DNA of 64,000 nt, taken from positions 1 to 64,000 of IMG/VR virus record IMGVR_UViG_3300028128_000337. One strand, given 5' to 3'. The notes under the pieces are model-generated. The model had not been told where the DNA came from, ran no database searches, and worked only from the letters and a program-made list of their open reading frames with translations. Numbering within the stretch: position 1 is the stretch's first letter; the number at the start of each line of letters is the position of its first letter. This DNA is from a virus. Its lineage: Duplodnaviria; Caudoviricetes. Positions 1 to 64,000 of the stretch are shown here, piece after piece. The translations under genes were made by a program, and so were the position numbers.

Positions 1-2313
1 ACCGGATTTGATCGACGTTAACATGCCATCAAACGTGTCCTTCATCCACTTCCACACACCACCCACACCGGTCCACAACCAGTCACCAACATTAGTCACA
101 CCGGTGGCAATTTGATTCCAACCAAACGCTATAGACGATAACATGCCATCAAACGTGTCTTTCATCCACTTCCACACACCTTCCACACCGGTCCACAACC
201 AGTCACCAACATTAGTCACACCGGTGGCAATTTGATTCCATGATCGTTTCAACGTGCCCTCAGGGTCACTCCACAAATCTTCAAACCACTCCCATACACC
301 CTTCACTCCATCCCATATGTATGTACCAACATTAGCAACTTTCCCGGTGAGCTTGTCCCATGTTGTGGTTAAGTATTTCGTCACATCTGGGAACCTCTCA
401 GTCAACCACTCCCACGCTTTGGACACTGATACAGATACCATTTTACTTATGGACATGTCTGTCCACTCTTTAATACTGTCCGCGGTTTCATCAAACCCGA
501 ACAGCTTGAGCAACCACTCGCTGGCAAGACCCAGACCACTAACAACCATGTTAGGAAAGTACATCAGTATGTCAAATGCTGCTAACAGTGGGTTCTTTTC
601 ATTAAAATCGAACAACTTCGCGAAATACTTCTCAACCTTAGTTATCACGTCTTTTACAATGGTGATTATAAATCCGTCCTTCTCACCAGCTGTTTCATCG
701 GAATCAACCCATTTGATCAAACCTGTAAACCACCCTTTTATATCCTCCCAAACCTGCTTGACTGTAGTAGTGAGTGAAAATGTATCAGGTATACCGGACC
801 ATTTAAACACACCAATCACCCACTCAGTTGCTTTAGTGTAGGCGCTGTTGATCGTGTCAGTTAAGCTGAATGATTCTACTGCAGATGCAACCCAAGTGTA
901 CATTCCTTTGAACCATTTTGTGATCTCAATCTCTAAGTTGTTAACCCATGCAGCAAGACTCCACCTACCTTCTGTTGTTTCTCCGAAACTTATCAATGTT
1001 GTGAACCATTTCTTGACACTCGCTAGTACGGGGTCCACAATGTCGATCTTGAAGCTGAACGGGTGTGTAGGGTCACCGAACTTGAATACTTCATTGAAAA
1101 AGGTCACCACCGGGTCAATCACCAAACCGGCTGCATACGCAGCAAAGTCAACGGCATCTCCAAACAATGCCAATCCAGCCTTTCTCGCTAGCTCCAGGTC
1201 AAATGTAAATACACCTACGACCATATCAACAACATTACCAATCATTTGATTCACCTGTGTCAACATGCCTTCCACATTTGCTGTGAGAGCCGCTCCGGTG
1301 GCTGGTAAGCCAATCCATTCTAGCACTTTTGCTGGTATACTAGTGAGAAACCGTATAATATCACCTATTAAAAATTCAAATAGAGACTGAAAACCACCGG
1401 TGATGCCAGATGCTACACCTCCTTGCTCGTAACCTTTCATGAAACCGGAGATAGTTTCTATTATTCCAAATATCACTGTGATTGGTAAAAATAATTTGCC
1501 TAACAATTTCCCAACACCTTTCGCGAAGCTTGTTACAGCTTTAAATGCTGGGTTTTTTAAGAACATATCGCCAATCTTCTTAAAAACACTAGCTTTTCCC
1601 TTACCGTCACCAAAAATAGGTACCAACATCTTCTGCATGGATTTGATAATGGGTTGAATCCGTTTGTTTATGCCTGTGAGTATTGTTTCTATTGGTTTGA
1701 ATGTCTTTCTGGTATTTTTTAACAGCTGTTTAATCTTTTTTGACACTGGGTCCAGTTTTGTTTTAAGTGTATCAAACCATCCGGAGATACGGATGAAAAA
1801 ATTTGATAATGGTTTCCAGAATTTAGTCTTGAGAAAACCTTTAAGCCTTTTAAACCATTGTTGTTTCCCAATTTCTTCAAAGAATGCGAAGAGTGCAACA
1901 ACTGGTGCGACTACAAGCCCTATAGCCCCTCCTAATAATAATGTTTTCCAATTAAAATCATCCGATTGTTGTTGGTCCTCCTTTTTCTCTTTCAAGGCTG
2001 TGGATGTCGGCATTATCTTAGCTAAACTGTTCAGCACTTTCCGATCGATACTCACTATCGACACCGGCATTACATCGGCTCTTATTTTCCTAGGAGCAGG
2101 TGGTTGCTTCTTTCTGTCTTCTTTTTGTTTTTTTGAAGATTCTTCAGCATTGATCTTCGCTTGATTTTCTTGCTCCTTCTTTTTTATTGCAAGTGGGTCA
2201 AGAAAGCTGTTCTCTGATCTTTGCTGATCAACAACATCGCCGGTTTTTTGAGTCCTCAACTCATCAACCAGACCAGTTAAAGTGGTGATTAGTTTATTTA
2301 GATTTTCTTCCAT
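1..2313 (-). CDS. Tail tape measure protein (gp29-like), 3' end runs off the window
   Basis: Not in ORF track. Translated by hand from ATG 2313 (MEENLNKLITTLTGLVDELR...) with no stop seen to position 1. Amphipathic helices, hydrophobic GGAIGLVVAPVV segment, periodic Trp/Phe, 40-aa repeats. Follows baseplate hub genes. Confidence 0.8.
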   Translation of the reverse strand, partial: MEENLNKLITTLTGLVDELRTQKTGDVVDQQRSENSFLDPLAIKKKEQENQAKINAEESSKKQKEDRKKQPPAPRKIRADVMPVSIVSIDRKVLNSLAKIMPTSTALKEKKEDQQQSDDFNWKTLLLGGAIGLVVAPVVALFAFFEEIGKQQWFKRLKGFLKTKFWKPLSNFFIRISGWFDTLKTKLDPVSKKIKQLLKNTRKTFKPIETILTGINKRIQPIIKSMQKMLVPIFGDGKGKASVFKKIGDMFLKNPAFKAVTSFAKGVGKLLGKLFLPITVIFGIIETISGFMKGYEQGGVASGITGGFQSLFEFLIGDIIRFLTSIPAKVLEWIGLPATGAALTANVEGMLTQVNQMIGNVVDMVVGVFTFDLELARKAGLALFGDAVDFAAYAAGLVIDPVVTFFNEVFKFGDPTHPFSFKIDIVDPVLASVKKWFTTLISFGETTEGRWSLAAWVNNLEIEITKWFKGMYTWVASAVESFSLTDTINSAYTKATEWVIGVFKWSGIPDTFSLTTTVKQVWEDIKGWFTGLIKWVDSDETAGEKDGFIITIVKDVITKVEKYFAKLFDFNEKNPLLAAFDILMYFPNMVVSGLGLASEWLLKLFGFDETADSIKEWTDMSISKMVSVSVSKAWEWLTERFPDVTKYLTTTWDKLTGKVANVGTYIWDGVKGVWEWFEDLWSDPEGTLKRSWNQIATGVTNVGDWLWTGVEGVWKWMKDTFDGMLSSIAFGWNQIATGVTNVGDWLWTGVGGVWKWMKDTFDGMLTSIKSG
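21..240. repeat. 120-bp period tandem repeat (40 aa) inside the tape measure gene
   Basis: 21-120 and 141-240 differ at only 3 positions; both encode WNQIATGVTNVGDWLWTGVxGVWKWMKDTFDGM on the minus strand. Confidence 0.95.
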
Positions 2314-2335
2314 GAGTCATAATTACTTATGACTC
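2314..2335 (-). promoter_or_regulatory. Late promoter TAAGTA embedded in a 9-bp hairpin abutting the tape measure ATG
   Basis: Minus strand reads GAGTCATAA-gtaa-TTATGACTC-ATG. Confidence 0.7.
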
Positions 2336-2338
2336 CAA

Positions 2339-4102: not shown

Positions 4103-4111
4103 ATATGTTAT

Positions 4112-15654: not shown

Positions 15655-16095
15655 ATGAAACTATTTGAATCAAAATTTTTTAACATTCTCGAGGAGGCTC
15701 CAGAAGATTTAACACAACCACCATCTCCGGGGACAGAAGCTGAAGTGGCTGCCGTTCAAGACACCCTCGAACCCACAACAAATCCTGAGGTGATGGACGT
15801 GCCGGATAATCCAGAGATCGCGCTCCGACAGCAACAGAGCCAAAGAACAATATCCACAATAACAACCTGGATAGGTGAGATTGAAAATTTTATAGACTAC
15901 TTGAATGGTACAGATGATGGTTCTATCAACTTCACAATCAATGCTGCTGACTGTGACAGTTTGCTTACTGATATACAGCGTAGTGAGAGTAAGAAAATTT
16001 CTAGACTGGCGCAAGATCTCTCGGGACTGGGTGAGTCATTGAAGCAGTATTTATTACTAGCTAAAAGAAAAGAGTCCGGTGCAGACTCTATTTAA
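15655..16095 (+). CDS. Hypothetical late protein with capsid-targeting-like leader
   Basis: TAAATA upstream; MKLFESKFFNILEE. Confidence 0.65.
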   Translation: MKLFESKFFNILEEAPEDLTQPPSPGTEAEVAAVQDTLEPTTNPEVMDVPDNPEIALRQQQSQRTISTITTWIGEIENFIDYLNGTDDGSINFTINAADCDSLLTDIQRSESKKISRLAQDLSGLGESLKQYLLLAKRKESGADSI

Positions 16096-17104
16096 TTTGT
16101 TTCAATTTAACAAGGCCCTGTAAGCCGCAATACGTGTTATCCAGTAGGTATTTTGTTGACACCTTGTTAAGTTTAAAATGCACGCACATATCATTGATAT
16201 CTTTGAACAGCTTGCCGGTGTCTTGCGGCCAAATAAACACACACTCACCCTGCTTAAGTAAAATATTTGTCTTCAATAAACTCGCACTATCTTGCCACTG
16301 ACTATCCAACACCCATACTGGTTGAGTTAAAAATAATCTCTCCAACTGTGCTCTCTGCGTTGATGTGAGTGTGTTCTGACTCTTCTCTTGTATGCCAGCG
16401 ACAGCCACAGAGTTGCTCACAAAAAAACTGTCTATAGGGCCTTCAGTTATAAATACATGTTCCGCGGAAGTTGACACTTGATCGTAATTGAACAATGACT
16501 TCTCACTATTTTGCTTTGACAAATACTTTGGACGGTTCGGGTCATTCAGTAAATCTCTAGATTGATAGAATATACACCGGTTCTCCCGGTCATTGAATGG
16601 TATTACCAACCGGTTTTTGTGTACCATGTCAGTTATGGTTGTGTATATAGATTTAGGGCGATTGGTAGCCACATTCAACCTTCTCTTAACTATAATCTCC
16701 GCCGCCAGTTTGACTATCTTGTTGTTCTTATAATATTGTAACTGTGTACGATCGAATAAATTTATACAATCTCGAGGTAGATCGGGTGTGAAAGGTATTT
16801 TTTTAGGAGTGACCACCGGAATTCCATATTCATAATCACATTTATCAATCTGCTTACACAATTCACGATAGTTTATGTTCTCTAGTTCCATGACCCAGTC
16901 TCCTGGTTTGCCATACCAACCGCAATTATGACAACATATTACACTATCCTTAGGTACATAGTAACACCGGGATTTTCTTCCCCAGCTCTTACCCTCTCTA
17001 CATATTGGACACCCACCAGTGTAAGTGTTTGTTGATTTTGTATATTTAGGGTAACCTGCGTGTTGATAAAACTTTTGAATTATGTACTCTTCTGGTACTA
17101 TCAT
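16088..17104 (-). CDS. DNA primase (gp61-like)
   Basis: Zinc finger CPIC...CHNCG; RLVIPF; YQSR; PKYL; TOPRIM ITEGPIDSFF; KDINDM. Confidence 0.95.
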   Translation of the reverse strand: MIVPEEYIIQKFYQHAGYPKYTKSTNTYTGGCPICREGKSWGRKSRCYYVPKDSVICCHNCGWYGKPGDWVMELENINYRELCKQIDKCDYEYGIPVVTPKKIPFTPDLPRDCINLFDRTQLQYYKNNKIVKLAAEIIVKRRLNVATNRPKSIYTTITDMVHKNRLVIPFNDRENRCIFYQSRDLLNDPNRPKYLSKQNSEKSLFNYDQVSTSAEHVFITEGPIDSFFVSNSVAVAGIQEKSQNTLTSTQRAQLERLFLTQPVWVLDSQWQDSASLLKTNILLKQGECVFIWPQDTGKLFKDINDMCVHFKLNKVSTKYLLDNTYCGLQGLVKLKQIK

Positions 17105-19748: not shown

Positions 19749-20075
19749 TTACTCTTTCTTCCTGTAAAAGCTCGTATCGGAGTTAATGCCTTTTGATGCT
19801 AACAGGTTAACAATCACCTCCATACTGCTTGTCCTTACTGTTAGATTTTTTTGAAATCGCAAACCACCATCATTCAACTCAAACTCCGGGAGGGATCCAA
19901 GTTCCTCTCTGTTGACCACACATGTGATATAAAGCGACTCAACACTAGGGTTGAGCATGATAGTCCATTTCCTAGGATCCTCAATAGAATATTTATTCAT
20001 TATGTCCCAAACGACATAACCACAGTCCTTCAAGCGCTTTTTAAAATATGAGAGTGTATGTATTTTATTTTTCAT
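19749..20075 (-). CDS. Hypothetical protein
   Basis: Abuts the sliding clamp gene. Confidence 0.6.
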   Translation of the reverse strand: MKNKIHTLSYFKKRLKDCGYVVWDIMNKYSIEDPRKWTIMLNPSVESLYITCVVNREELGSLPEFELNDGGLRFQKNLTVRTSSMEVIVNLLASKGINSDTSFYRKKE

Positions 20076-20813
20076 TTATCCTACGAATCCGGATGATATA
20101 ATAGTTATGTTTGCAGAGCCACAATTCAACTGAAATAGAAACACATTCAGTGTCGGGTTGACTAAAACTGTCAGATCTTCAAACCGGATGGTGCTTATAA
20201 TTCTGATCGTTTCAAAAGATAATGCTAATGGATTCTCTGTTGATTCACCTTTGTACTTGTCAGATATTTGTTGAGAATAGCTGTCAATATTGTGTCTTTG
20301 TTTGTCAGTTAGTGTTGCGTGTACGCAATTATCTTCAGTGTAGAAGTATATCTTGTTGGTTTCTGTTGTGAACGTACTCGCCTTAATCAACTGATTGACC
20401 ACATCAGGCTTGAGTGTGAATCGGAACGGGAATTCAATGCTCTTGATTTTATTGAGATCCACCGCCGGGGGTTCAATTATCCCGTCCTCGAGCAAATGAA
20501 ATTTAAACCCCATTACGCCAGACCGGTGCTCAATATTATTGTTATTGAATTTTAATTCAATATCATCACCATACACACAACCCAACACCTTAATCAACCG
20601 ATTGAGATCAGGTATGTTTAGATATATCGTCTCAGTTACGTTGTTTGGCTGTTTGTATGTACAATTGACAATTAGAGTACCATCACTACTTGAACTGGTG
20701 GCGGTGAACTCCTTCTCTCTGACTTTCAACACTGCATTCTCAGTTAATTTACCAATTGGAGAAAGGAAACTGTTTATGAAATCCGTCTTGTTAGTTATTT
20801 TTATTTGTGTCAT
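20076..20813 (-). CDS. DNA polymerase sliding clamp (gp45-like)
   Basis: 245 aa; IPDLNRLIKVL, FRFTL...NQLIKAS pattern of the PCNA/gp45 fold; replication context. Confidence 0.7.
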   Translation of the reverse strand: MTQIKITNKTDFINSFLSPIGKLTENAVLKVREKEFTATSSSSDGTLIVNCTYKQPNNVTETIYLNIPDLNRLIKVLGCVYGDDIELKFNNNNIEHRSGVMGFKFHLLEDGIIEPPAVDLNKIKSIEFPFRFTLKPDVVNQLIKASTFTTETNKIYFYTEDNCVHATLTDKQRHNIDSYSQQISDKYKGESTENPLALSFETIRIISTIRFEDLTVLVNPTLNVFLFQLNCGSANITIISSGFVG

Positions 20814-21339
20814 TTAGTTTTAATGTTATGGTTTTGGTCTGTTTTGACATTTCGGACAGCACAACATCAACTATATCCTGAGGATCTTTAAATACGCCTT
20901 TTATTTTGGTTGAATTTATTGTATATGATACACCTCTCTTGAACTTAAAATCTATTTTAGATTCTAATACACGTTCGATCTTATCTAATCTTTTGATCAG
21001 ATTGGATAACTCAACATGATGCCCATCTATGTTATTCGTAATTTGTGATTCTTGTTGGACTGTGACCTGTGGGCTCGTGGCCGGGTTTGGGCTCGTGACC
21101 GGGATTGGGCTCGGTGGTACAGTTGACTGCGTTACCATCTGTTTGAGAACTTCCTTGGGATCAGTCTTATTAGCCTTAATGTAAGGGCTATCACCTCCAA
21201 CATTTTTTGTGTCTATATCTTTGAGAGAACCAGACACATGACCTAACAAACCGGCCACCGCATAAATATCATCCTTACCCATGAGTGGTTGAGATTCGTG
21301 ATTTCTACTGTCATATGGATTGCGCTCTTCAGACATCAT
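20791..21339 (-). CDS. Hypothetical protein with Pro-rich linker
   Basis: Between gp32 and gp45; imperfect 18-bp repeats near 21071-21114 encode PSPIPVTSPNPATSP. Confidence 0.6.
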   Translation of the reverse strand: MMSEERNPYDSRNHESQPLMGKDDIYAVAGLLGHVSGSLKDIDTKNVGGDSPYIKANKTDPKEVLKQMVTQSTVPPSPIPVTSPNPATSPQVTVQQESQITNNIDGHHVELSNLIKRLDKIERVLESKIDFKFKRGVSYTINSTKIKGVFKDPQDIVDVVLSEMSKQTKTITLKLNDTNKNN

Positions 21340-22219
21340 CCAATCCAGCTAACAACTCTTTGACCTTGTCATCTTCAAGCGTATCATCCTTGGTTGTGTC
21401 CTTCTTGTCGTTATCAAACTCCATAGGCACCTCTTCATCTAAAGCCGGGTCAGAAGACACTTGTGATTTGGTTTCCGGAGAAATTGACTCTGTCAGTGTT
21501 TCCGTAGAACCTGGATCTTTGCAATGAAAGTGCTCATCTAGCATCAGCTTGAGTTCATCAAAAGTTTTCTCCCGGAATGTCTTTTCTAGGTCATGACAAC
21601 CGGAGTATATCTCCTTAACACGTGAGTCATCCACCCCAGGGATGGCTCCGGGCATTAAAAATTTACTTGACACATATGTGGGATAATCTCCTTGTTTTTC
21701 ACATCGGATCCGGAAGGTACATCCATTCTCAGACAGGTCAAATATCCTCTCACCAAATTGATCAGAATCCTCACCATTGATACCCTCCATTATAATTTTA
21801 TGCAATTGCTTACCAAACCTCACAATTTTCACTGTGTCATTATTTTCCGGGTCGTCCGGGTCATTAACAATATACGCATTCACCAACCACTTTTCACTTC
21901 TAAATATTGCATCCGATTTAGCTTTCTCCTCAGGAGTTCCGGAACGGAAGCACTTCATTCGATATTCTGCGATTGGATCACGATCACCCCACGTTGTAGG
22001 GCTCAAGGCTGTTACGTATTGACCGGTACTAAAACTAGTCCATCCGTGACTGTAAAAATGATAAAATGTCTTGCTAGGATCTTCTATATTAGGTAACAAT
22101 CTAACCTCATATGAATTTCCTGGTTTTGTTCTAAGGATATCAGCAGTTTTGTTGTTAGATCCTTCTTTAGTTAGTGCGTCTTTGATGCTCGCGAACATTG
22201 ATTTTGTAAATGTGCTCAT
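21329..22219 (-). CDS. Single-stranded DNA-binding protein (gp32-like)
   Basis: VRLLP..HGW..DPIAE..NAYIVNDPDDPENN..VKIVRFGKQLHKII..IFDL..G..FRI..YPTY..SKF; acidic tail. Confidence 0.92.
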   Translation of the reverse strand: MSTFTKSMFASIKDALTKEGSNNKTADILRTKPGNSYEVRLLPNIEDPSKTFYHFYSHGWTSFSTGQYVTALSPTTWGDRDPIAEYRMKCFRSGTPEEKAKSDAIFRSEKWLVNAYIVNDPDDPENNDTVKIVRFGKQLHKIIMEGINGEDSDQFGERIFDLSENGCTFRIRCEKQGDYPTYVSSKFLMPGAIPGVDDSRVKEIYSGCHDLEKTFREKTFDELKLMLDEHFHCKDPGSTETLTESISPETKSQVSSDPALDEEVPMEFDNDKKDTTKDDTLEDDKVKELLAGLDDV

Positions 22220-22223
22220 GTAT

Positions 22224-22550
22224 TTATTTTATATTGGATTGGTTTATTGGCCAACTTTTGTCTTTAAGTTTTTGGTTGTATATTTTGTAACATTTCATAG
22301 CTTTCATACTGTTGTAGAACTTCAAGTCGTAACTCACAAGCTCATTATATATCATGTATGGTGCCCGGAAATAATTTGTCATATTTATATTATCGTGTCT
22401 ACGTAGGAAGTTTGCAAGCTTTTTTATTTGTAAATATTCCGGTTTTGTTTCAAAGTCATCCCAATTCTTTCTCAGATTGTATGGCTTTCCAGCGCCGGCT
22501 CTAGTCACAACGAGCCAGCAATTGTATATACTTTTTTCGAAATCGCTCAA
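22224..22550 (-). CDS. Possible gp59-like helicase loader (N-terminal domain only)
   Basis: IYNCWL..KPY..DFETKPEYLQIKKLA loosely matches the gp59 N-terminus; sits upstream of gp32 as in T4. Confidence 0.35.
   Translation of the reverse strand: MSDFEKSIYNCWLVVTRAGAGKPYNLRKNWDDFETKPEYLQIKKLANFLRRHDNINMTNYFRAPYMIYNELVSYDLKFYNSMKAMKCYKIYNQKLKDKSWPINQSNIK
22226..22254 (-). promoter_or_regulatory. Sigma70-type promoter for gp32
   Basis: TTGGCC-17 nt-TAAAAT-6 nt-ATG. Confidence 0.65.
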
Positions 22551-22861
22551 AATTTTAAATTTAGTTTCGGGTTATCACACAAATAGTTTCGTATGTATTT
22601 AGAGCGATGGAGAGTTGGGTCATGGTCCAGAAAGCATTTCAACACATCATAGTCTGTCTCAACATCACAAACCATCTTAAATATTTCACGCAATTCCGGC
22701 TCTCTCATTAGCCAGAGAAATATGTTAGGTAGGTTGAGTTTTTTATTCTTAGTAATACACACAAAGGAACAGAACGTGAGGAATATATGAGAGAATTCAC
22801 TTTCATAAGCTATATCTACCGGATTGGTGTTACTTAGCATGCTTTTTGTATCTAACGTCAT
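22547..22861 (-). CDS. Hypothetical protein
   Basis: Overlapping ORF run. Confidence 0.6.
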   Translation of the reverse strand: MTLDTKSMLSNTNPVDIAYESEFSHIFLTFCSFVCITKNKKLNLPNIFLWLMREPELREIFKMVCDVETDYDVLKCFLDHDPTLHRSKYIRNYLCDNPKLNLKF

Positions 22862-23763
22862 GTTATTGGTTTTAAAATTGATGTTAATGTCATGACTTTG
22901 TCTGTCAATTGACCACCTGCGGAATACACATGACCACCTCCATCAGCTATACTAGCAGCTAGTTTCCCTAGATCTACATCAGGTGCCTTTTCTTTATTTT
23001 TTCGAAAACTAACTCGCTTTGTATTCAAATTGACCACCATGCATATCTCACAATCATAGTTATCAATAACATGGTGCGCCACTTCGTTGAGACAACTGCT
23101 CGCCATAGTCGCGAAGATTTTGTACTTATTACCACTAACTGGAAGTTCACCTTTGTATATCTCGAGCTCTGACAACACACGCTTCACTTTTTTGTTGTTC
23201 ATGTGGATCATATTCAAGTGCGATTGACTGAAACCATTAAAACCGGCACCGAAATCACGCTCAAATTGCTCTGCTCTGTTGCCAACATAATTCCACACTA
23301 TCACATTCAAATTGTATGAGTCTCTCAATTCTAACTTGTAACTATCATAGTCATCAGCTAACAAAACTAACATCTTTTGATTATCAGTGAGTGACCTTTC
23401 CGGGTATTTCTTCTTTAACAGATTGTATATCAACTTGCAACAACTACTGTAGTCCTCTACTAATGTAGTTGCGTGTTTGTATTTGTCTAAATTTGCCACA
23501 TGTGTGTCGTGGTGATCAATTATTGTAAAATTCTTATGATCTACAAGATCGAGATTGCTTTGAGACACATCTAGATCGAACACATATATTTTATCGTACG
23601 TTTCCGGGTCGTTGCTTTTTGACCACTTCATGAAGGTGTTCCGGAAATTTGATTGAGAGCATATCTCATGTTGTACATTTTTCAGTTGCGTGTACCAACG
23701 AAACGTATGATATGAGCTCAGTCCATCCAAGTCACAGTCTGTAAATATCGCTATCTTTTTCAC
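22858..23763 (-). CDS. DHH-family phosphoesterase
   Basis: TDCDLDG, FDLD, IIDHH, GGGHVYSAGG. Confidence 0.9.
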   Translation of the reverse strand: MKKIAIFTDCDLDGLSSYHTFRWYTQLKNVQHEICSQSNFRNTFMKWSKSNDPETYDKIYVFDLDVSQSNLDLVDHKNFTIIDHHDTHVANLDKYKHATTLVEDYSSCCKLIYNLLKKKYPERSLTDNQKMLVLLADDYDSYKLELRDSYNLNVIVWNYVGNRAEQFERDFGAGFNGFSQSHLNMIHMNNKKVKRVLSELEIYKGELPVSGNKYKIFATMASSCLNEVAHHVIDNYDCEICMVVNLNTKRVSFRKNKEKAPDVDLGKLAASIADGGGHVYSAGGQLTDKVMTLTSILKPIT

Positions 23764-23800
23764 TAATACTATATTTATTCGTGTAACTCATTGAAATCAA

Positions 23801-25129
23801 CTAACTTCCAAGCATCTGTAGCGAGTCAATAGTGTCCGTCATGTCTATGTTTTGCAGTTGTTCAGTTGCTTCTTTTAATGATAGTGTGTCATAATCAATC
23901 TCCATCATTATACTACCATAATTCTCCGCGAATCTGTTCTTCATCACACCCAATCTCAAAACTCCTAAATCAACATCTTCTTCTTCTCTCCAGATACTGA
24001 AAATAGCATCCGCGGTCGCTGCTAAACCGTAACTCTCACCGACTGTATCCAGGCCTGGATTTACCTCGTTGTAACCAGACCGGTTAAGTTGTGTGGCTGT
24101 GATGATAGGGCATTCAAACACATATGATAACGCCCGGAGCTCTTCTGTGGCGTATTTTATCCTCTCGTATGAATTAGTTCCGGTTTCTGCTCGAAGTAAA
24201 TTAACATAATCCAGTACAATTGCATCCGGTTTGATTCCCCTATCAACTAATTTCTTGATATATCCCTTCAAATGTCTGCATGTGATGGTGCTAGGAGGAA
24301 ACTCTTTGACGATTAGTCGGTTACTATTACCCTTCTGATGATATTGCTCAACAGCTGATTTTATCTCATCTGTTCTACTGTGCAATTGTTTGATTGGTAT
24401 TTGTGTTAAGTTTGTTGTTATCCTCTTCGCATACACCAACTCGCTCATCTCGAGACTTATCAACAGCACAGTCTTACCTTGATCTGCAATATTTTTCGCC
24501 ATATTTCCTAAAAATATACTCTTACCTATGTTAGTCTCGCCGGCGAAAACATATATCGCTCGACCGTTCTCTAGGAATCCACCATCTAGTTTTTTATCCA
24601 ACCATGGCCAACCGCACGATATCGTCTCATCCTTTGTCGTCAAATCAGTTATATGTCGGTCTATTTCATTTATATAATCCAAACCAATGTCAGTTGTAAG
24701 AGTTATGTTACACGACTTTTCAAATTTTTGTAATATCTCGCTAGTGTCAACGAGTGCATCTTCAGTCTCTGAAGCCACCTCGAGTAGTGTGTTGTACACT
24801 GCGCGCTCTTTGAGGAATTTTTCAGTATTCTCATATAAATCATCATGATTGAAGTTTTTATCAAAACCTTCGAACAATTCAACCACCGCTCGGAAGCTCA
24901 CCTTCAACTCATTAGTAATCAATCGACTCTTGAGTTCGGTCATTGTCGGAGGTGTGCTCCGTTGACTGTAAAAATCAACAATCAACTCAACAACCCGAGA
25001 TATGTCTTTGTTGTTGAAGTATTTTTGATCTAGGTGGTCAATTATACTGGTCAAATAGGACTCGTTAGTCAACATGTTATATGCTATGACTGTCTCGTAA
25101 AACTCATTATCTATTTTCACTGATGTCAT
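23801..25129 (-). CDS. Replicative helicase (gp41/DnaB-like)
   Basis: GETNIGKS, SLEMSE, IVKEFPP, LDYVNLL, TATQLNRSG, ESYGLAATAD, KNRF. Confidence 0.96.
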   Translation of the reverse strand: MTSVKIDNEFYETVIAYNMLTNESYLTSIIDHLDQKYFNNKDISRVVELIVDFYSQRSTPPTMTELKSRLITNELKVSFRAVVELFEGFDKNFNHDDLYENTEKFLKERAVYNTLLEVASETEDALVDTSEILQKFEKSCNITLTTDIGLDYINEIDRHITDLTTKDETISCGWPWLDKKLDGGFLENGRAIYVFAGETNIGKSIFLGNMAKNIADQGKTVLLISLEMSELVYAKRITTNLTQIPIKQLHSRTDEIKSAVEQYHQKGNSNRLIVKEFPPSTITCRHLKGYIKKLVDRGIKPDAIVLDYVNLLRAETGTNSYERIKYATEELRALSYVFECPIITATQLNRSGYNEVNPGLDTVGESYGLAATADAIFSIWREEEDVDLGVLRLGVMKNRFAENYGSIMMEIDYDTLSLKEATEQLQNIDMTDTIDSLQMLGS

Positions 25130-25803
25130 TATTTGTAATTGTTATAAAATGTTTGTTGTGATTGTTGAAAATTTTTGTCATTTATATCTCTCAAACCCGG
25201 ACTATTGTGTGTTACATATATCGGATATGTACCTATTTTTAATTTTAGCTTGTTTGCATCCAGACAACTTGACATATCATAATGATGGAATTTATAATCC
25301 TCATTGAATCTCCACCCCACCTCTAGTGCACGTTTCAAATCAATCGCTATAAACAGACCATCCAAAACTAAACATCTCTGCGGCCACGGACCAAAACAAG
25401 TGACCGCCATCTTGGTATCACCATCCACCGGGTGTGAAACCGCTCCAGATTGACTATCTCGCGAACTCATCAAGTGCCACAGGCACGGTTTCTTCACCTT
25501 TATTTGACTTGCTCCTGCTAACCCTACAATATCGTAACCCATTCCCTCGATCGCAGTGTACAATTTACCCTTCAACTTGAGATCATCAATGTATACATCA
25601 TCATGCGCGAATAATACTATATCATGTTTAATCAAATTCTCCGGTGTAATCTGTCGATTGTATGCCTGTGACAGACCGATCCGGTTGTTAGCGTTCACGA
25701 CAAGCTTCACATCATCCTTTAGCTCTCCAAGCGAATGTACAAGTGATGATTGTTTGCCACTGTCTTTTGAGCATGTTACAACTAATATTTTTTTCATCTT
25801 CAT
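25129..25803 (-). CDS. GT-A fold glycosyltransferase (GT2-like)
   Basis: GLSQAYN..VLFAHDDV..IVGLAG..VLDGLFIA..FNE..FHHYD. Confidence 0.85.
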   Translation of the reverse strand: MKMKKILVVTCSKDSGKQSSLVHSLGELKDDVKLVVNANNRIGLSQAYNRQITPENLIKHDIVLFAHDDVYIDDLKLKGKLYTAIEGMGYDIVGLAGASQIKVKKPCLWHLMSSRDSQSGAVSHPVDGDTKMAVTCFGPWPQRCLVLDGLFIAIDLKRALEVGWRFNEDYKFHHYDMSSCLDANKLKLKIGTYPIYVTHNSPGLRDINDKNFQQSQQTFYNNYK

Positions 25804-26525: not shown

Positions 26526-26526
26526 A

Positions 26527-27234
26527 CTATACACACTCCTTCATATTTAACCACGGTATGTCCGCACGACTATACGGCACCGGGTCTCTATAACCAGCTT
26601 GCAGAAAGCCTTGTATTCTTGAACTACATGCGGTGCATTCCCCACATGCTTCTGCACCACCGTTGTAACATGTCCATGTGTCCGATAACTTCACACCCAT
26701 TAATATCGACTTGAGTATTATATGTTCTTTAGACATCTCGATCAATGGACATTCCACCTGTACTCGGTCTCTCCGGTTGAGTGATAACAGATTATTTACT
26801 GATTTTAAAAATTCTGGACTACCATCCCAGAAACCTGCTTGACTATCCACAAGAGCTGCTCCATGAAAAACTGTTTCCGCTTGTAAGCTCTCAGCATATG
26901 CAGCACATATACTCAACATCATCATGTTGCGGTTTGGAACGTAATTTACGGTTTGAGGGTCTCCTAGCACATCACGTGCATTAGCTACATCAATCTGCTC
27001 ATTTGTCAAAGAGCTTGTATTTGCAATGTGTTTGAAAAATGTTATGTCTAGTGTTTTCCAACTCTCAATACCGACATGTTCTATTTGCTTCTCTGCACAT
27101 CCAAGCTCTTTATCAAGATGCCTTTGACCATAATTAAAACTGACTGCATGTATCTCATAACCACGTTTCTTCGCGATATGTAATATCAAGCTCGAATCTA
27201 ACCCACCACTAATCGGTATCACACACTTTTTCAT
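26527..27234 (-). CDS. queC: 7-cyano-7-deazaguanine synthase
   Basis: SGGLDS, FNYGQRH..EL, YVPNRN, PLI..SK, TWTCY..ACGECTAC..R. Confidence 0.97.
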   Translation of the reverse strand: MKKCVIPISGGLDSSLILHIAKKRGYEIHAVSFNYGQRHLDKELGCAEKQIEHVGIESWKTLDITFFKHIANTSSLTNEQIDVANARDVLGDPQTVNYVPNRNMMMLSICAAYAESLQAETVFHGAALVDSQAGFWDGSPEFLKSVNNLLSLNRRDRVQVECPLIEMSKEHIILKSILMGVKLSDTWTCYNGGAEACGECTACSSRIQGFLQAGYRDPVPYSRADIPWLNMKECV

Positions 27235-27240
27235 ATACAT

Positions 27241-27269
27241 ATTATAGAATACCTGGGACTAATGTTCAA
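27241..27269 (-). promoter_or_regulatory. Sigma70-type promoter for the queC-gat-GT-helicase operon
   Basis: TTGAAC-17 nt-TATAAT-6 nt-ATG 27234. Confidence 0.8.
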
Positions 27270-27286
27270 CTATTATAAATAAAGAC

Positions 27287-28936
27287 ATGACACACAACAG
27301 GCACGGAAAAAGGGACAATGATATAATATGGGAAGCACTATCAAACCGATACAACATCAAGCACAGTAAGCAATTGAGTAAATTGTGGGAACAGGATGTC
27401 AAGTATGTTGAGCAATTTTTAATTGATGAGGGTTTGATGGACACTGTCAAAAAGGGTTTTGGTTCTGTTAAAAACTTCGCTAGTGACAAGTTGCTTAAAC
27501 CAGTGATGGACTTTTTAGCGGGTATAATTGCTAAAGACCCTCAAATGTCGCAGAAGGCACAAGCTGCAGCAGCACAAGGTCCAGAAGCCTTACAACAACT
27601 CGCCAGTACAGAAGGTGATCAGAGTGTCATACAACAACTGGACCAACCAATTACACAAGGTGAGAGCTATGCATACCAATTTAAATTGAATCAAACAATT
27701 TGTGAAGCACTTGTTACGGTAGGTATATTGACAGAATCCGCTAGCAAATCAATACAGCAATGTAGATATGATATCGTGTTTGAGTCGATATTAACACTAC
27801 AAAAAACTGATTGCCCGTGGAAGCCTAGTGGTGTCGTCACTGAAAGCGCGCGGGAAATCGCGAGGCAAATCACGCAATTGATGAAACAGGGTGGTAATAG
27901 TAAGAAAGTTTTAAATGCTTTGTTGGCGACTGATGAATCAGGTTTTAAGGAGTATCTATTCAATAATTTGAAGGTACCGGAAGCAACATTAGACCGCAGA
28001 GTTCAACAAATTAAACGTAGCCAACAGACTGCTCCGACTGAACCAGTTGCTCCAACTGAAACAGAACCAGTTGCTCCAACTGAAACCGAACCGTTGGGTA
28101 CAACTGAACCAACTGAAACAGGATCGGTACCTCCAACGAACTCAGGAGCCTCTGATACTCAGGCGATTCCTCCTGCATTACCAGATGCATCAGCCGGGCA
28201 GAAAACCCCGGGGTTGTTGGGTAAGGTTTGGAATTTTATTAAGAATAACAAGGGTGCCATAGGTGGCGCAGCCGCGATGGGGCTTGCTGCAGCGATTGCC
28301 ACTAGTACTGGTAATCCTATGGCGTTTAGCTACCTGGTTGGTGGTCTGGTAGGTGGTGCTAAGGGTGCTATTCAGGGAGCAACTCAAACACAAGGCGGTT
28401 TTACTGACAAGTTAAAAGGTGCTGCAAATGCTGCTGGGACAGGTTCTATGAAGGCTGGTGGTTTAGCTGCAGCAGCAAGTGGTATTGGATCTGCAGCGAG
28501 CAACGCTGTGAATGGAGCGGAAGTACCAGGGAGTGTAGACCCGGTAACACCATCTACTCCAGGTGAGCCGGTTGATCCGGGTTCAGATTATGGCGGAAAC
28601 CCGGGAGATTATAGTACGGGTGGGCAATTTGATCAAGAGACTCCAAATATTGGTGGTTCAACCGGAGGTTTCAATCCAGAGACCGGTCAGAGTAACATGG
28701 ATTTATCTGATGATGAAGTGGCGGCATATAATGCACAATCACAAGCTGACGCTAATGGTGAAATACCAGGTGTTGATTATCAAGAACCGACAGCAACATC
28801 TCCGGAGGAAGCAGAAGCGGCAGCAGCAGGAGATACTAAATCATTTAGTCAAAAATTCAAGGATTTTTTCAAACCAGCTAGCCCGGAAAGGGCAGAGGAA
28901 TTGAGACGTATGAGACAACCGGTGAGTAGAAGATAA
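27287..28936 (+). CDS. Large late low-complexity protein, candidate ejected/internal virion protein
   Basis: TATAAATA 5 nt upstream; PTEP linker; Gly/Ala zipper hydrophobic segments; several hydrophobic-x-E sites. Confidence 0.6.
   Translation: MTHNRHGKRDNDIIWEALSNRYNIKHSKQLSKLWEQDVKYVEQFLIDEGLMDTVKKGFGSVKNFASDKLLKPVMDFLAGIIAKDPQMSQKAQAAAAQGPEALQQLASTEGDQSVIQQLDQPITQGESYAYQFKLNQTICEALVTVGILTESASKSIQQCRYDIVFESILTLQKTDCPWKPSGVVTESAREIARQITQLMKQGGNSKKVLNALLATDESGFKEYLFNNLKVPEATLDRRVQQIKRSQQTAPTEPVAPTETEPVAPTETEPLGTTEPTETGSVPPTNSGASDTQAIPPALPDASAGQKTPGLLGKVWNFIKNNKGAIGGAAAMGLAAAIATSTGNPMAFSYLVGGLVGGAKGAIQGATQTQGGFTDKLKGAANAAGTGSMKAGGLAAAASGIGSAASNAVNGAEVPGSVDPVTPSTPGEPVDPGSDYGGNPGDYSTGGQFDQETPNIGGSTGGFNPETGQSNMDLSDDEVAAYNAQSQADANGEIPGVDYQEPTATSPEEAEAAAAGDTKSFSQKFKDFFKPASPERAEELRRMRQPVSRR
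28031..28120 (+). repeat. 24-bp tandem coding repeat (EPVAPTET)
   Basis: GAACCAGTTGCTCCAACTGAAAC twice plus degenerate flanking copies. Confidence 0.85.
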
Positions 28937-28939
28937 GTA

Positions 28940-30034
28940 TTAATCGATACTGTAACTATATTGCTTCTGTAACTGTATCTCTAGTTTGGGTAATATAATA
29001 TCTTCCCATAATTTCTCATCATTTTTCCAATTCTTGTAATATCCTATTTTTTTACCAGGTACTCCATCCTTTTGTGGTGGTAGTGCGTATGTCGATCCGG
29101 TTTGTAATATAACTCCGTGATTTACAGCCATTTCTTTGAGACCACTATACTTGTCTAACCCTCTTTTAAAGTTCAAATATACTTCACACTCTAAGAATGG
29201 AGGTACAAATCGGTTTTTGACTGTTAGCGCTCTTAGTGTCGTGCCACTCACCTTATTCGCTTCGGGTAACAACTCATCCGAATCTCCACGAGATACGTCA
29301 TGTTTTTCGTCACGCTTTGCTAATTGTACCAATACGCTTGCTAGGTACACAGGGCCCTTGCCACCACTCTGTGATTTCACTAATGTCGGGAACATAGCTG
29401 CTGGGTCATCATATGTATGATTACTAAAGAGTATTGTGACACCGGCTTGAGCAGCTTTGAATGTCAGTAATCTCATCATGCTCTTCAAGCCTTTAGCTCG
29501 TGTGCCCATATCCATGGCCGTTTTGCCCTTCTCAGCATCATCAATCTCTTTCTGACTTGCTAGGTTGCCTAGACTGTCAATACTCAGTATGAATTTATCT
29601 CTCATTTTAGCCTCAATCACACCGTCAAGAAACGCAGATATCTGATTACGACAATCTTCAACTGTCTGCACCGGAACATACTTGACTTTGTCACTATCTA
29701 GACCAACACCAACCGTGCTGCTAGCATCAATCGCAGCCTCTGTATCAAATATAACAGGGATCATTCCGTTTTTCTGACCATTCGCAAGAATCTTGTTAAT
29801 AATATATGTCTTACCAGCGGCACTAGGGCCGCTGAAACCGGAGATTCGACCCATGGGCACGCCACCATACAAACTACCGGAAATGATCGCGTTCAACACC
29901 ATGCAACCGGTGTCCACCCAGTTGTTTACTGTCGACAACGCGCTTTCTGAAAGGAATTTCGCTTCTGGATTGAGTTTCTCAAGTTTTTCAAACACCTTGA
30001 GAACGTCTTTGTCAATCTCTTTAGTCTTCGTCAT
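28940..30034 (-). CDS. uvsX: RecA-like recombinase
   Basis: DTGCMVLNAIISG..GPSAAGKT..FDTE..IDSLGNL..DMGTRAK..NHTY..SGG..KNRF. Confidence 0.95.
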   Translation of the reverse strand: MTKTKEIDKDVLKVFEKLEKLNPEAKFLSESALSTVNNWVDTGCMVLNAIISGSLYGGVPMGRISGFSGPSAAGKTYIINKILANGQKNGMIPVIFDTEAAIDASSTVGVGLDSDKVKYVPVQTVEDCRNQISAFLDGVIEAKMRDKFILSIDSLGNLASQKEIDDAEKGKTAMDMGTRAKGLKSMMRLLTFKAAQAGVTILFSNHTYDDPAAMFPTLVKSQSGGKGPVYLASVLVQLAKRDEKHDVSRGDSDELLPEANKVSGTTLRALTVKNRFVPPFLECEVYLNFKRGLDKYSGLKEMAVNHGVILQTGSTYALPPQKDGVPGKKIGYYKNWKNDEKLWEDIILPKLEIQLQKQYSYSID

Positions 30035-30407: not shown

Positions 30408-30413
30408 AACATT

Positions 30414-30442
30414 ATTATAATGTATTCAACCATCATTTTCAA
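30414..30442 (-). promoter_or_regulatory. Sigma70-type promoter
   Basis: TTGAAA-17 nt-TATAAT-6 nt-ATG. Confidence 0.8.
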
Positions 30443-43496: not shown

Positions 43497-44825
43497 ATGA
43501 ATTTTAAAGCATATAACAGAGTAATAGAGGAAGGGGGTGCCTATGGTCACATGATGAACGTGCATGAGGACTACACTTTACAGTTTGAGGACCTGCAAAG
43601 AATCATCAAACAAGCGCTGACCGGTGGTATCAAAGGTCAAGTCAAAGAGAAAACTGACGGTCAAGCGTTAGCTGTGAGTCATCGTGCCAATCGTGTGTGT
43701 TTCGCAAGGAACAAGGGTCATTACAAGAACTTTGGCAAGAACGCCATACGTGGTGCCAAGGGCATTGCAGAATTTTTCAAGGAGCATCCGAATGACAACG
43801 TGAAAGAAGCGTTCACATTCGCGGCAAAGGATCTAGAGAAAGCCATCCTGGCGTTGAGTGACAGACAGAAGCAACTGTTGTTCGCAGATGGCAAGAGATG
43901 GATCAACGTGGAAGTGATCTGGCCAGCCACTGTGAATGTGATACCGTACAATCACGAGCTGTTGGTCTTGCACAACTTTCGTGAGTATGATGAGGATGGT
44001 AATGTTGTTGATGGTGATTTTGACGAGTATGGTCGCATGATGGCAGGCATGATCGAGCAGATCAACCAACACGTGCAGGACAAATTCACAATAACCAGCA
44101 TGCCAATATTGAAATTGCCTCAAGTTAAAAATTTTGAAGCCAGCATCGGTGAGTATCAAGGTGTGTTGAGCAACCTGATGACCGAACACGGACTGAATCC
44201 TAGCAACAACATCGGTGACTACTGGGTGAGTTACATGAGCCGAGTGGTTCAGAACGGAGCACGTGAGTTCGGTTACATAGCACAAGCAGATACGCTTAGA
44301 AGAATCGCGTATAGATGGGCGTTCAAAATGCTCACTCCAGGCAAACGTCCCAAAGATTACAACTCGTTAGCGTTGAGCAAGATCACCGAGCTCAAGGGTA
44401 TGGTTGACAATCGAGAGTTCATACAATGGATCAGCGCCACCGAGAAGAGTGGTGAGCTCAAGAGCATCTACAATCGGATGATCGAGCCTCTCAAAGCGTT
44501 GTTTCTCAAGCTTGGTGTGGAGTTGAACAAGAACATTTCCAATCTACTCACACTGAATCCATCACAAGCTGTCCAGGAGATACGACAAGGAATTGAAGAA
44601 GTTACAAGAGAAATTGAGGCGACAGGAGATCTAGCATTGATGGACAAGCTACATCATGAGCTAAAAATGATAAACAAGCTGGGTGGACTGGACAACATAG
44701 TACCAAGTGAGGGTCTCACGTTCACATACACGTCACCTGGTGACAGCGAGCCTAAAATTTACAAATTCACGGGCATATTCGCACCAGTTAATCAAATTCT
44801 AGGTAGCTTAAAATTCAGTCGGTGA
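43497..44825 (+). CDS. ATP-dependent ligase/nucleotidyltransferase-fold protein (RNA-ligase-like)
   Basis: Motif I EKTDG; NVEVI; C-terminal SEGLTF and YKFTG resembling motifs IV and V. Confidence 0.55.
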   Translation: MNFKAYNRVIEEGGAYGHMMNVHEDYTLQFEDLQRIIKQALTGGIKGQVKEKTDGQALAVSHRANRVCFARNKGHYKNFGKNAIRGAKGIAEFFKEHPNDNVKEAFTFAAKDLEKAILALSDRQKQLLFADGKRWINVEVIWPATVNVIPYNHELLVLHNFREYDEDGNVVDGDFDEYGRMMAGMIEQINQHVQDKFTITSMPILKLPQVKNFEASIGEYQGVLSNLMTEHGLNPSNNIGDYWVSYMSRVVQNGAREFGYIAQADTLRRIAYRWAFKMLTPGKRPKDYNSLALSKITELKGMVDNREFIQWISATEKSGELKSIYNRMIEPLKALFLKLGVELNKNISNLLTLNPSQAVQEIRQGIEEVTREIEATGDLALMDKLHHELKMINKLGGLDNIVPSEGLTFTYTSPGDSEPKIYKFTGIFAPVNQILGSLKFSR

Positions 44826-46324: not shown

Positions 46325-47443
46325 TTATCTCAATCCGGTCGTCTCAAATACATCTCTAGCTACCCCGGCTGAAAAACCTCCGGTTACTCCCTTCACTATT
46401 ACTGACACCGCATTGTGACTGTGTAGACTTTCGTTGTGTGATGCTACAATCTTAAAATCCTTGATACGAGACTCGTTATTTAATTTTTCATACATTAACC
46501 TCACCGCGTCCTCTACAAATTTTAAATTAGATCCATTGAGCTCGGCAAATGCTTGCTCATCTTCACGCTTGACCATCACCTGTGTCTCAGTCTGCAAGGC
46601 CGCTAAACACAACTCCTGTATATCCTCTACCCATAGCATGTCATCAAAACGTACACTCACTCGAGCCACACTCCGTTGACTATGTGGCACGGTAGCCCGA
46701 TTTCGGTATTTTTCAGCATGCTCGCTCAGCTCGAAACTACATGGGCATGCGGATGAATATACAAAATCAAAGTGTATATATTTTTTAAATTCTCCGGATT
46801 TGGTCAAATCACCTTCAAACACCACGTCATAATACTGAAAACCTTCCAAACCACTTCTCAAGCTCTTCTGTCTAATAGGATACGAAGTCTTTAGCATGAT
46901 TCTAGAGTCAAAACACATTAGATTTTTTTTATAATTCTCTAGCACGTCTCTTATTTTGTCAATGCTAAATGTTTCATCCTTGTGATTGTAAAAGCTTCTC
47001 ATGATTCTCGACATGTTAATCCCTTTTTTATGTGCTTCTAGGCTTACGCTACCCGTGACACTAGTTTCTAGCTCAATCGTTGCACCACTTCTCTTCTTGT
47101 ACGTCAATGGTAATCTGAAATTGTGTATACCTACTTGTTGTATCGCCACCGGTGCTCCCTGTATCAGACTTGATGGCCCGTTTTGCAGGTCTGGTAATGA
47201 AGAGATGTACTCTTTATCGGCTGTTAGCTTGTTGTCATACACTCTAATAGGTGACGCATAACCCTTACTATACTCATCCCCCATGATTTTCTTGGCGATA
47301 TCGTCTTTCTCTCCGGTCAACTCGTCATCCCCTAGCCACTCATAATTATTCTCTGGTACACCTTGTGACATCTGCTCCGTCCAACGATCGATTTCCTTTA
47401 TTTGCTCCCGGGAGCGTGTGTAATTACCATTTGTTTCTGACAT
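46325..47443 (-). CDS. folE2: GTP cyclohydrolase I type B
   Basis: IQQVGI, KGINMSR, SACPCS, PHSQRS, VKREDE, FVEDAVR, ESLHSHNA. Confidence 0.95.
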   Translation of the reverse strand: MSETNGNYTRSREQIKEIDRWTEQMSQGVPENNYEWLGDDELTGEKDDIAKKIMGDEYSKGYASPIRVYDNKLTADKEYISSLPDLQNGPSSLIQGAPVAIQQVGIHNFRLPLTYKKRSGATIELETSVTGSVSLEAHKKGINMSRIMRSFYNHKDETFSIDKIRDVLENYKKNLMCFDSRIMLKTSYPIRQKSLRSGLEGFQYYDVVFEGDLTKSGEFKKYIHFDFVYSSACPCSFELSEHAEKYRNRATVPHSQRSVARVSVRFDDMLWVEDIQELCLAALQTETQVMVKREDEQAFAELNGSNLKFVEDAVRLMYEKLNNESRIKDFKIVASHNESLHSHNAVSVIVKGVTGGFSAGVARDVFETTGLR

Positions 47444-47449
47444 ACTTTG

Positions 47450-47478
47450 ATTATATATTATTACATACATTAATTCAA
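47450..47478 (-). promoter_or_regulatory. Sigma70-type promoter for folE2
   Basis: TTGAAT-17 nt-TATAAT-6 nt-ATG. Confidence 0.8.
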
Positions 47479-49501: not shown

Positions 49502-50119
49502 ATGTTTACAAGTACAAAAATTATTGAATTAGGTAGCTGTGCGTTCAGACAACCTAATGCAGATTCTCATTGCAGGTTTCTGCATGGTTATAGGTTAACA
49601 GCTAAGTTTTGGTTTAGATCTGAAAAATTGGATGATAATAACTGGGTTGTTGATTTTGGTGGATTGAAGGATCTAAAGAAACAATTACAGAAGCAATTTG
49701 ATCATACTACATGCATATCCAGAACAGATCCAAAGCTAGACATTTTCAAGAATATGAGAGATGCTGGTGTGTGTGACTTGAGAGTCATGGACGGTGTTGG
49801 TATCGAAAAATTTGCGGAATGGTGTCATGATGCGGCTGATGAATTTGTCAGTTTGACGACTGATATGAGATGTAGGTGTGTGGCAGTTGAAGTGTTTGAG
49901 CATGAGAATAATTCTGCAATCTTTAGCACTCCGGTGGAGAAGCTCACACCAGCCAAACAAGAGGATGTTTTTTCAGTTCCGGAACAGGAGAAAGGTGTAG
50001 TGGTTCCAGAAAATGCATTTTCAGTACCTGTTGAACCAGGAAAAACACCAGCTCCGTTGAATTGTAAGAAGAGTACTAGCTGGATAGACAAGGAATCTAC
50101 CAACACATGGGGACTATGA
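49502..50119 (+). CDS. queD: 6-carboxy-5,6,7,8-tetrahydropterin synthase
   Basis: HCRFLHGY, WVVDFGGLK, FDHT, VEVFEHENNSA; about 60-aa C-terminal extension. Confidence 0.92.
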   Translation: MFTSTKIIELGSCAFRQPNADSHCRFLHGYRLTAKFWFRSEKLDDNNWVVDFGGLKDLKKQLQKQFDHTTCISRTDPKLDIFKNMRDAGVCDLRVMDGVGIEKFAEWCHDAADEFVSLTTDMRCRCVAVEVFEHENNSAIFSTPVEKLTPAKQEDVFSVPEQEKGVVVPENAFSVPVEPGKTPAPLNCKKSTSWIDKESTNTWGL

Positions 50120-61163: not shown

Positions 61164-61176
61164 AATAAATAATTGT

Positions 61177-61758: not shown

Positions 61759-61769
61759 CTTCGGATAAA

Positions 61770-62250: not shown

Positions 62251-62300
62251 CTATATATATGATAGCGTATAAAAACTAGAAATCAAGCATAAATATAAAT

Positions 62301-63404
62301 ATGAGGAGCAATCCATTTTATTTCGAGATAAAAGACGTGATGACACAGTTTGTTGCTGCGTTCAACAACATAATAATAAGCCGTCATGATAAATCTAAAA
62401 ATGTAAGGTCTAAAGTACATGTTAGATATGTATATGCCCCTAAACAACGTGTGGTACATGACTTGACAAACAAAGCTCGACACTTAACCTTACCGGTGGT
62501 GGCTGTCAATATCACTGGAATCAATCGAGATTCTAGCCGTGTGTTCAACAAACTAGAAGGTGCATATTACACCGGTGAGGAACGACATAGGAGCTCACCC
62601 AAGTCTGACAAATCTAACAAAGCTGTACATATGCTACAACCAGTACCGATCAACATACAAGTCAGTATGAGCATGATGGCACGGTATCAAACAGATATAG
62701 AGCAGATTGTGAGCAATTTTGTACCGTATTGTGACCCTTATATTGTAATTTCATGGATGATGCCGGAAGGTTTCACATATTACGATCAAGAGATTCGAAC
62801 AGAAGTAGAATGGTCTGGTGATATTAGCATGGATTATCCTGATACACTGACTGGTACAGATCCATATCGACTTAGTGCAGACACTACATTCACTATAAAA
62901 ACATGGCTGTTCAAACAAGTGGAGACACCACAAGAGAATATATACAAAATTACAACCAACATATCACCGGTCGTCGACCTCCCGGACATGTCACTAGTCT
63001 TACCGATGTATGATAATGTGACAGAGAGGTCATATGTTGAGGGTTTAGGACCACCGCTAACAGCAGCCCCGTATATCACACATGTTGAAGATGATGGTCA
63101 GACTACCAACAAAGTGGTGCTTGGTTACAATCTGGGTGAAACAAGCAGTGTGTATCTGTCTTGTAACAACATCAACGCATTGAGCGGTGAGCGTGTGCAG
63201 TTGTTTGACAAAACCGGTTTGAACACATTATATCCAGCTTTCACTGGTGTTAGTGTTGATTATGACATCACTAGTGACAACACTATAGTAATTGATGATA
63301 CAATTGTACCACCTGGTGTGATGTATGATATTGTGGTGGTGAGCGCTGGTGGTTATGATACAGCGGTAAACTCACCTCGACACAACCAAGATGTTATATC
63401 GTAA
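62301..63404 (+). CDS. Tail sheath stabiliser / tail terminator (gp15-like) with C-terminal extension
   Basis: FYFEIK..FVAAFNNI.I.R..YAPKQR..LTLP..D..R..PVPINI..QIVSNFVPYCDP..FTIKTWLF. Confidence 0.85.
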   Translation: MRSNPFYFEIKDVMTQFVAAFNNIIISRHDKSKNVRSKVHVRYVYAPKQRVVHDLTNKARHLTLPVVAVNITGINRDSSRVFNKLEGAYYTGEERHRSSPKSDKSNKAVHMLQPVPINIQVSMSMMARYQTDIEQIVSNFVPYCDPYIVISWMMPEGFTYYDQEIRTEVEWSGDISMDYPDTLTGTDPYRLSADTTFTIKTWLFKQVETPQENIYKITTNISPVVDLPDMSLVLPMYDNVTERSYVEGLGPPLTAAPYITHVEDDGQTTNKVVLGYNLGETSSVYLSCNNINALSGERVQLFDKTGLNTLYPAFTGVSVDYDITSDNTIVIDDTIVPPGVMYDIVVVSAGGYDTAVNSPRHNQDVIS

Positions 63405-63448
63405 TAACATAGTTTTAAAAACATGTCGTGTCAATAAATATATAATAG

Positions 63449-64000
63449 ATGACTGACTGCAACAAAACAGTTACAATAGATGGTCTACCGACTCGTGATT
63501 CTGCGACTAGTGATGATTTCTTGATAGTACATAAATCTGGTCAAACGAGCAAAGTCCGGGTTAGTGATTTTGTGTTGGGTGCTGATAATGTAGATTTTTA
63601 TCCAGATCTAGCTGCCATGCTAGACAGAATAACACAACTTGAAACCATAATACAAACGAGTAGTGGTAATTGGAACTCCACACACACAACAACGTCCAGT
63701 AACAGCGGGCAGTGGAGCACTCTCACAACAGAGGATCAACAGACCATAAAAAATACACTCGAACAGAATGTAACAAAATGGACAGACACAGCAAATACCG
63801 TCGATACATACAAGACTGTATGGAACAATACACATGAAATTGTTATGAGCAGTGTGGATGATTGGAACAGTGCACACAACACCATACAGATAAATAGCGA
63901 GAATTGGAACCAGGCGTATCAATCAACACAAGATGGAATGGCTGCTATTCATGAAGCATTGGAAACTATTGAAACATCCCCGTGGTTTGAGCTGTACGCT
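63449..64000 (+). CDS. Fibrous structural protein with 14-aa Trp periodicity, runs off the window
   Basis: Not in ORF track. By hand: MTDCNKTVTIDGLP...SSGNWNSTHTTTSSNSGQW...KWTDTANTVDTYKTVWNNTHEIVMSSVDDWNSAHNTIQINSENW; TAAATA upstream. Confidence 0.7.
   Translation, partial: MTDCNKTVTIDGLPTRDSATSDDFLIVHKSGQTSKVRVSDFVLGADNVDFYPDLAAMLDRITQLETIIQTSSGNWNSTHTTTSSNSGQWSTLTTEDQQTIKNTLEQNVTKWTDTANTVDTYKTVWNNTHEIVMSSVDDWNSAHNTIQINSENWNQAYQSTQDGMAAIHEALETIETSPWFELYA

Follow-up and report, generated by a model that had tools for sequence, protein, structure and literature searches.

The 64,000-nucleotide stretch of DNA analysed here (the window) covers positions 1 to 64,000 of an IMG/VR virus record of 98,278 bp (G000; CheckV completeness 46%), and its excess of the palindromic tetranucleotide CCGG is a solid, modest-sized compositional signature. 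Encoded are a T4-type tail sheath, a large terminase, a family-B DNA polymerase and a DnaB-like helicase, together with a Rad50/Mre11-like pair, gp32, UvsX and baseplate proteins, and the phage is an uncultured marine T4-like phage of the myovirus lineage. Identity to the nearest isolated phages does not exceed 38% in the terminase (TerL) and 32% in the polymerase. A megablast comparison of window positions 20000-32000 with isolated phages returned zero matches, as did a scan for TerL across prokaryote genomes, and no tRNA genes were found in the window. A 193.7-kb scaffold of 99.5% identity was recovered from 2016 Monterey Bay bloom metagenomes; only 22 single-nucleotide polymorphisms separate these strains, too few for polarising gains and losses of CCGG. 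IMG/VR labels G000 a provirus, yet the near-identical scaffold holds only phage-like genes beyond the left end of the window.

Extent and dispersion of the CCGG excess

CCGG occurs 292 times in the window, corresponding to 4.6 sites per kb at a GC content of 39.7%, and the palindromes of the same composition, GGCC, GCGC and CGCG, occur 38, 63 and 87 times, respectively. Expected counts for CCGG are 99 (order 0), 70 (order 1) and 162 (order 2, the maximal-order Markov model), so that the observed number exceeds the order-0 expectation by a factor of 2.9 and the order-2 expectation by a factor of 1.8. The order-2 z-score of +20.3 is the highest among the 256 tetramers (runner-up CTAG, 9.7), and over the whole 98-kb record 423 sites give a z-score of 23.1 at 4.3 per kb. 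The genome-wide over-representation claimed in the preliminary description is thus borne out, and the counts given there are exact (12 CCGG, 2 GGCC, 1 GCGC and 0 CGCG in 21001-22000; 7 CCGG in 16001-17000; 8 in 26001-27000). As CCGG is palindromic, its sites are listed without strand.

1..64000, no strand: 292 dispersed CCGG sites (Markov counts, Poisson spacing)
28001..30000, no strand: densest 2-kb bin, 17 CCGG (site histogram)
20001..22000, no strand: second densest 2-kb bin, 16 CCGG (site histogram); contains 21001-22000 and the gp32-like gene

The gp32-like gene within the second of these bins holds 10 CCGG against 4.2 after shuffling. The sites are spread across the entire window with no clustering, and the spacing between them is exponential and Poisson-like (coefficient of variation 1.02, Kolmogorov-Smirnov p 0.98), which rules out both clustered and regular spacing. 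Neither a longer motif nor a repeat family behind CCGG was found, and the sites have no extended consensus around them; the best octamer, CACCGGTG, has 14 copies in the genome.

A DNA-level effect confined to one word

Synonymous-codon shuffling, in which protein sequence and codon usage are kept, leaves 234-248 CCGG expected against 410 observed (z about 15, 1.65-fold), and each reading frame is separately enriched with z-scores of 6.4-11.3. The preliminary description had allowed that codon and dipeptide usage might account for the excess; split by frame, the excess persists under codon and amino-acid control, and the over-representation therefore stands. Outside genes, 13 CCGG are found in intergenic DNA against 3.2 expected. 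The effect is confined to the CCGG tetramer, since CCGG stands at 2.50 times its order-0 expectation and all the related words are depleted, the remaining 15 NCGN words at 0.61-0.88 and the remaining G+C-only words at 0.35-0.82. Among other words of the window, GGCC lies at 0.35 of expectation, and CACA/TGTG, ACAC/GTGT and CAAC/GTTG lie about 2-fold above the base-composition expectation.

Within genes, the excess is carried by codon choice that depends on the neighbouring codon. The proline codon CCG makes up 37% of choices before G versus 19% elsewhere (p 7e-11), the threonine codon ACC 46% before GGN versus 18% elsewhere (p 4e-19) and merely 12-15% before GA or GT, and the arginine codon CGG 21% after a C-ending codon versus 7% elsewhere (p 6e-9). 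These shifts require A>G, A>C, T>C and T>G changes at word positions 2, 3 and 4; one mismatch-repair activity would explain so many kinds of change, spread over several positions, less well than selection on the word would. Since the excess persists after codon and amino-acid control, a DNA-level pressure specific to CCGG, acting through context-dependent codon choice and outside genes, is supported.

One gene departs from this pattern.

43497..44825, plus strand: candidate major capsid protein, 442 aa; 1 CCGG against 3.6 expected, the exception gene

This highly conserved protein of 442 aa, which may be the major capsid protein, is 88% identical in the related phage G003 and has 954 homologues, without a Pfam or PHROG family.

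The excess could also be an ordinary by-product: CCGG could be raised by codon-pair (translation) preferences shared with the host, or could be a 'safe harbour' left after avoidance of other G+C-rich words, of AGG-like words and of G-runs. In-gene CCGG sites do all straddle two codons, before GG the codons ACA and ACG are avoided, depletion extends to every other G+C-only tetramer, other words reach a similar z-score under the synonymous shuffle, and in candidate host genomes (see below) the bias is limited to two frames. In the phage, however, all three frames show the excess, as does DNA outside genes, and NCC is preferred over NCT before GG with hand-computed odds ratios of 1.9 for Thr, 2.4 for Ser and 1.7 for Pro (1.0 for Ala). 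After C, moreover, CGT shifts to CGG, and avoidance of AGG and GGG explains neither this shift nor the NCC preference. The gene that is likely the most expressed also has the fewest CCGG sites, and we regard such a by-product as unlikely.

Distribution among phages and a possible link to Pirellulaceae

The fold excess of CCGG over the base-composition expectation is given here as r0. Among 80 viral contigs found via terminase, most with a TerL identity of at least 56% have an r0 of 1.5-3.2, and 69 viral contigs carrying the GTP cyclohydrolase FolE2 have a median r0 of 2.14. CCGG ranks first by z-score in the whole contigs G000, G003 and G005, is moderately enriched in G006 and G007, is weakly enriched in the complete genome G001 and shows no excess in G008. 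The r0 of T4 is 1.19, the cyanophage S-RIM8 (L247) has 0 CCGG in a sampled 30-kb stretch, and in outgroup contigs CCGG shows no excess or is wholly missing. The excess thus extends across a large uncultured lineage of marine T4-like phages, and our literature searches turned up no earlier account of excess CCGG in phages. Among distant relatives, near-total avoidance of CCGG was seen in L079 (0 sites against 40 expected), L083 and L088.

Phages usually lose short palindromes because their hosts cut there. The lineage-wide accumulation of such a palindrome suggests that the DNA is safe at CCGG or benefits from it, and points to an undescribed modification or recognition system. Restriction-site avoidance, in which selection acts on short palindromes of phages (PMC6286503), is opposite in sign to the enrichment described here, and outgroup relatives and the cyanophage do avoid CCGG.

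Individual sites are not retained between relatives. Across 57 orthologues of G000 and G003, only 24 CCGG are shared and 172 and 88 are private. Where a dipeptide is conserved, having a site in one genome is no predictor of having one in the other (p 0.23 and 0.81), and no positional conservation is seen. Taken with the random spacing, this indicates that density is maintained rather than particular sites. Core genes are enriched 2.89-fold versus 1.63-fold for lineage-specific genes.

A possible link from this phage group to marine planctomycetes is given by FolE2.

46325..47470, minus strand: FolE2 (GTP cyclohydrolase), 7 CCGG against 2.1 expected; links the phage group to marine Pirellulaceae metagenome-assembled genomes (MAGs)

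The FolE2 proteins of the phages and of marine Pirellulaceae MAGs form an exclusive, well-supported clade with identities of 77-85%, versus at most 66% elsewhere. A near-identical FolE2 (84-85%) occurs in only 2 of 61 sampled Pirellulaceae genomes; a third genome, G071, has a 59% copy. In the MAGs G017 and G018, CCGG has r0 values of 1.50 and 1.73 and z-scores of 9-10 (rank 3), with codon-context shifts as in the phage but in two frames, and the absolute CCGG density is 4.5-5.0 per kb compared with 4.3 per kb in the phage. The FolE2-linked MAGs are also among the best matches of the tetranucleotide signature with CCGG left out. QueC and QueD of the phage are not close to the Pirellulaceae copies, so FolE2 is the sole gene link to this family. 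In the best 80 of 196 related IMG/VR viral stretches, FolE2 is 85-94% identical (mean 87%), and the neighbouring genes are 31-52% identical. The FolE2 clade may reflect a host link or an old phage-to-host transfer, and a marine Pirellulaceae planctomycete may be considered a candidate host, as a lead rather than as proof. The CCGG excess itself could serve as a compositional marker for linking uncultured phages to hosts. Within the Pirellulaceae sample, G017, G018, G028 and G039 combine a CCGG excess with no C5 methyltransferase match, and G026, G038, G049, G051, G059, G061 and G069 have C5 methyltransferase genes and no CCGG excess.

Candidate enzymes and readings of the excess

Neither a CCGG methyltransferase nor Vsr, both proposed for search in the preliminary description, was found in the phage, its relatives or the candidate host MAGs. 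The C5 cytosine methyltransferase family (PF00145) is absent from G000 (46% complete), from 16 relatives including the complete G001, and from MAGs G017-G019, and Vsr (PF03852) is absent from G000, from 5 relatives including G001, and from the same MAGs. N4/N6 and Dam-type methyltransferases were not found in G000 or its relatives (including G005 and the complete G001), nor were thymidylate-synthase homologues in G000 or its relatives. The relative G005 spans much of the genome half missing from G000, and among 30 proteins encoded in the stretch of G005 beyond G000 coverage, Pfam models matched no DNA methyltransferase. As for a CCGG restriction-modification system, no methyltransferase families were found in the phage records and RE_HpaII is absent from 19 Pirellulaceae genomes.

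These results bear on a context-specific mutation or repair bias, host- or phage-encoded, that turns neighbouring words into CCGG. Very-short-patch-like repair tied to cytosine methylation would be an example; a bias of this sort would affect any DNA replicated in such cells. Such a bias is consistent with a density that is kept while sites turn over freely, with older core genes that are richer than recent ones, as amelioration predicts, and with the weaker CCGG excess in two candidate host MAGs; TCGG/CCGA, at 0.61, is the most depleted NCGN word. That depletion is, however, no lower than general CpG depletion, and the deamination-product word CTGG/CCAG has a ratio of 1.24 and is not depleted, which disfavours a Vsr-type origin. 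The missing PF00145 and Vsr matches, the several substitution types needed at several word positions and the Pirellulaceae members that have C5 methyltransferases without the excess also speak against it. Modification-directed repair of the Vsr or HIP1 kind, suggested in the preliminary description, is disfavoured on these grounds, both transitions and transversions being needed, and a mutation or repair bias in general appears rather unlikely.

CCGG could instead, as the preliminary description suggested, be the target of a modification of the phage DNA, for example with 7-deazaguanine or a sugar supplied through the preQ0 and glycosyltransferase genes, and more sites would then give more protection; neither for this nor for the suggested binding or self-recognition mark was positive evidence found. 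Genes of the preQ0 (7-deazaguanine) pathway are present.

26527..27240, minus strand: QueC (E 2.5e-57), preQ0 (7-deazaguanine) pathway
49502-50119: QueD, preQ0 pathway

With FolE2, three preQ0 genes are thus found (QueE was not confirmed), and a glycosyltransferase gene adjoins QueC. Ten of 16 relatives carry QueC, and the two outgroup records without the CCGG excess lack it; QueC is, however, present in G008, which also lacks the excess. Motif-specific DpdA enzymes are known (PMC10484667, PMC7544227). The DpdA motifs known so far are GA and GGC, not CCGG. The TGT/DpdA family (PF01702) had no match in G000 or any of 16 relatives, the complete G001 among them, although divergent forms could escape such a search. 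Nothing known demands that a target motif be enriched, and we consider it quite improbable that CCGG is such a target.

The reading that we favour, though tentatively, is weak selection favouring many CCGG sites, which some factor would recognise. A weak genome-wide pressure on the word itself would keep it abundant, each site adding slightly to the recognition of double-stranded DNA by that factor, and the pressure would come from selection on density, not from biased mutation or repair. The factor reading CCGG may be a phage or a host protein, and a marine Pirellulaceae planctomycete with a weaker CCGG excess of its own is a possible host. Several points weigh against selection of this kind. 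The analysis did not pinpoint a reader of CCGG, and sequence alone cannot tell weak selection from a context-dependent mutation bias. By Karlin's tau, a stricter measure, CCGG reaches 1.21 in G000 (rank 6 of 256), 1.17 in G003 and 1.23 in G005, where a threshold of 1.23 is exceeded by about 1% of virus-site pairs (PMC4687349); the divisor of this ratio consists of sub-words inflated by CCGG itself. Under the synonymous shuffle, four other words attain z-scores similar to that of CCGG, the fold excess of CCGG being the largest (1.65), and since several unrelated words reach similar values, context biases are common in this genome. Part of the DNA counted as intergenic may consist of unannotated genes. 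The most conserved and probably most highly expressed gene (43497..44825) has CCGG below expectation, two of the four FolE2-linked MAGs are without a CCGG excess, and the unusual conservation of FolE2 among the phages weakens the evidence for a recent host link.

A more specific proposal, to which we assign a low probability, is that an undescribed DNA-reading system uses CCGG as its recognition word in a large marine T4-like lineage that perhaps infects Planctomycetes. Such a system might consist of a modification that needs neither DpdA nor a methyltransferase, or of a palindromic identity signal resembling Chi, and the density of the word would be selected in both phage and host.

Enrichment of short palindromes is known from other systems. 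Highly iterated palindromes of cyanobacteria (HIP1 and its alternates) are at least 8 bp long and enriched 10- to 100-fold. They resemble CCGG here in that the excess extends to every frame and to non-coding DNA while sites turn over freely, whereas the phage word is a bare 4-mer without extended consensus and is enriched 1.7- to 2.5-fold. In Escherichia coli, a bias of Dcm/Vsr very-short-patch repair for CCWGG was reportedly described by Bhagwat and McClelland in 1992. There too a DNA-level process enriches a short palindrome genome-wide, the palindrome being a methylation target, whereas the phage has neither a detected methyltransferase or Vsr nor a depleted deamination product. The closest precedent is the unexplained excess in Helicobacter genomes, in which CCGG is over-represented at about 39% GC and for which the authors offer no biological explanation (PMC4687349, Rusinov et al. 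2015). The palindrome and the base composition are alike, but Helicobacter encodes CCGG restriction-modification systems and its Karlin ratios reach 1.4-1.5, whereas the genomes searched here yielded no cognate enzyme, G000 and G005 have ratios of 1.21-1.23, and CCGG is enriched in a phage lineage.

Two further observations concern the relative G005. Five radical-SAM proteins are encoded amid genes of similar size (about 300-340 aa) at L121:3219-11982, followed by a transketolase-like gene, and L120:6756-7718 (minus strand) holds a gene for a UvdE-type UV-damage endonuclease in a T4-like phage.

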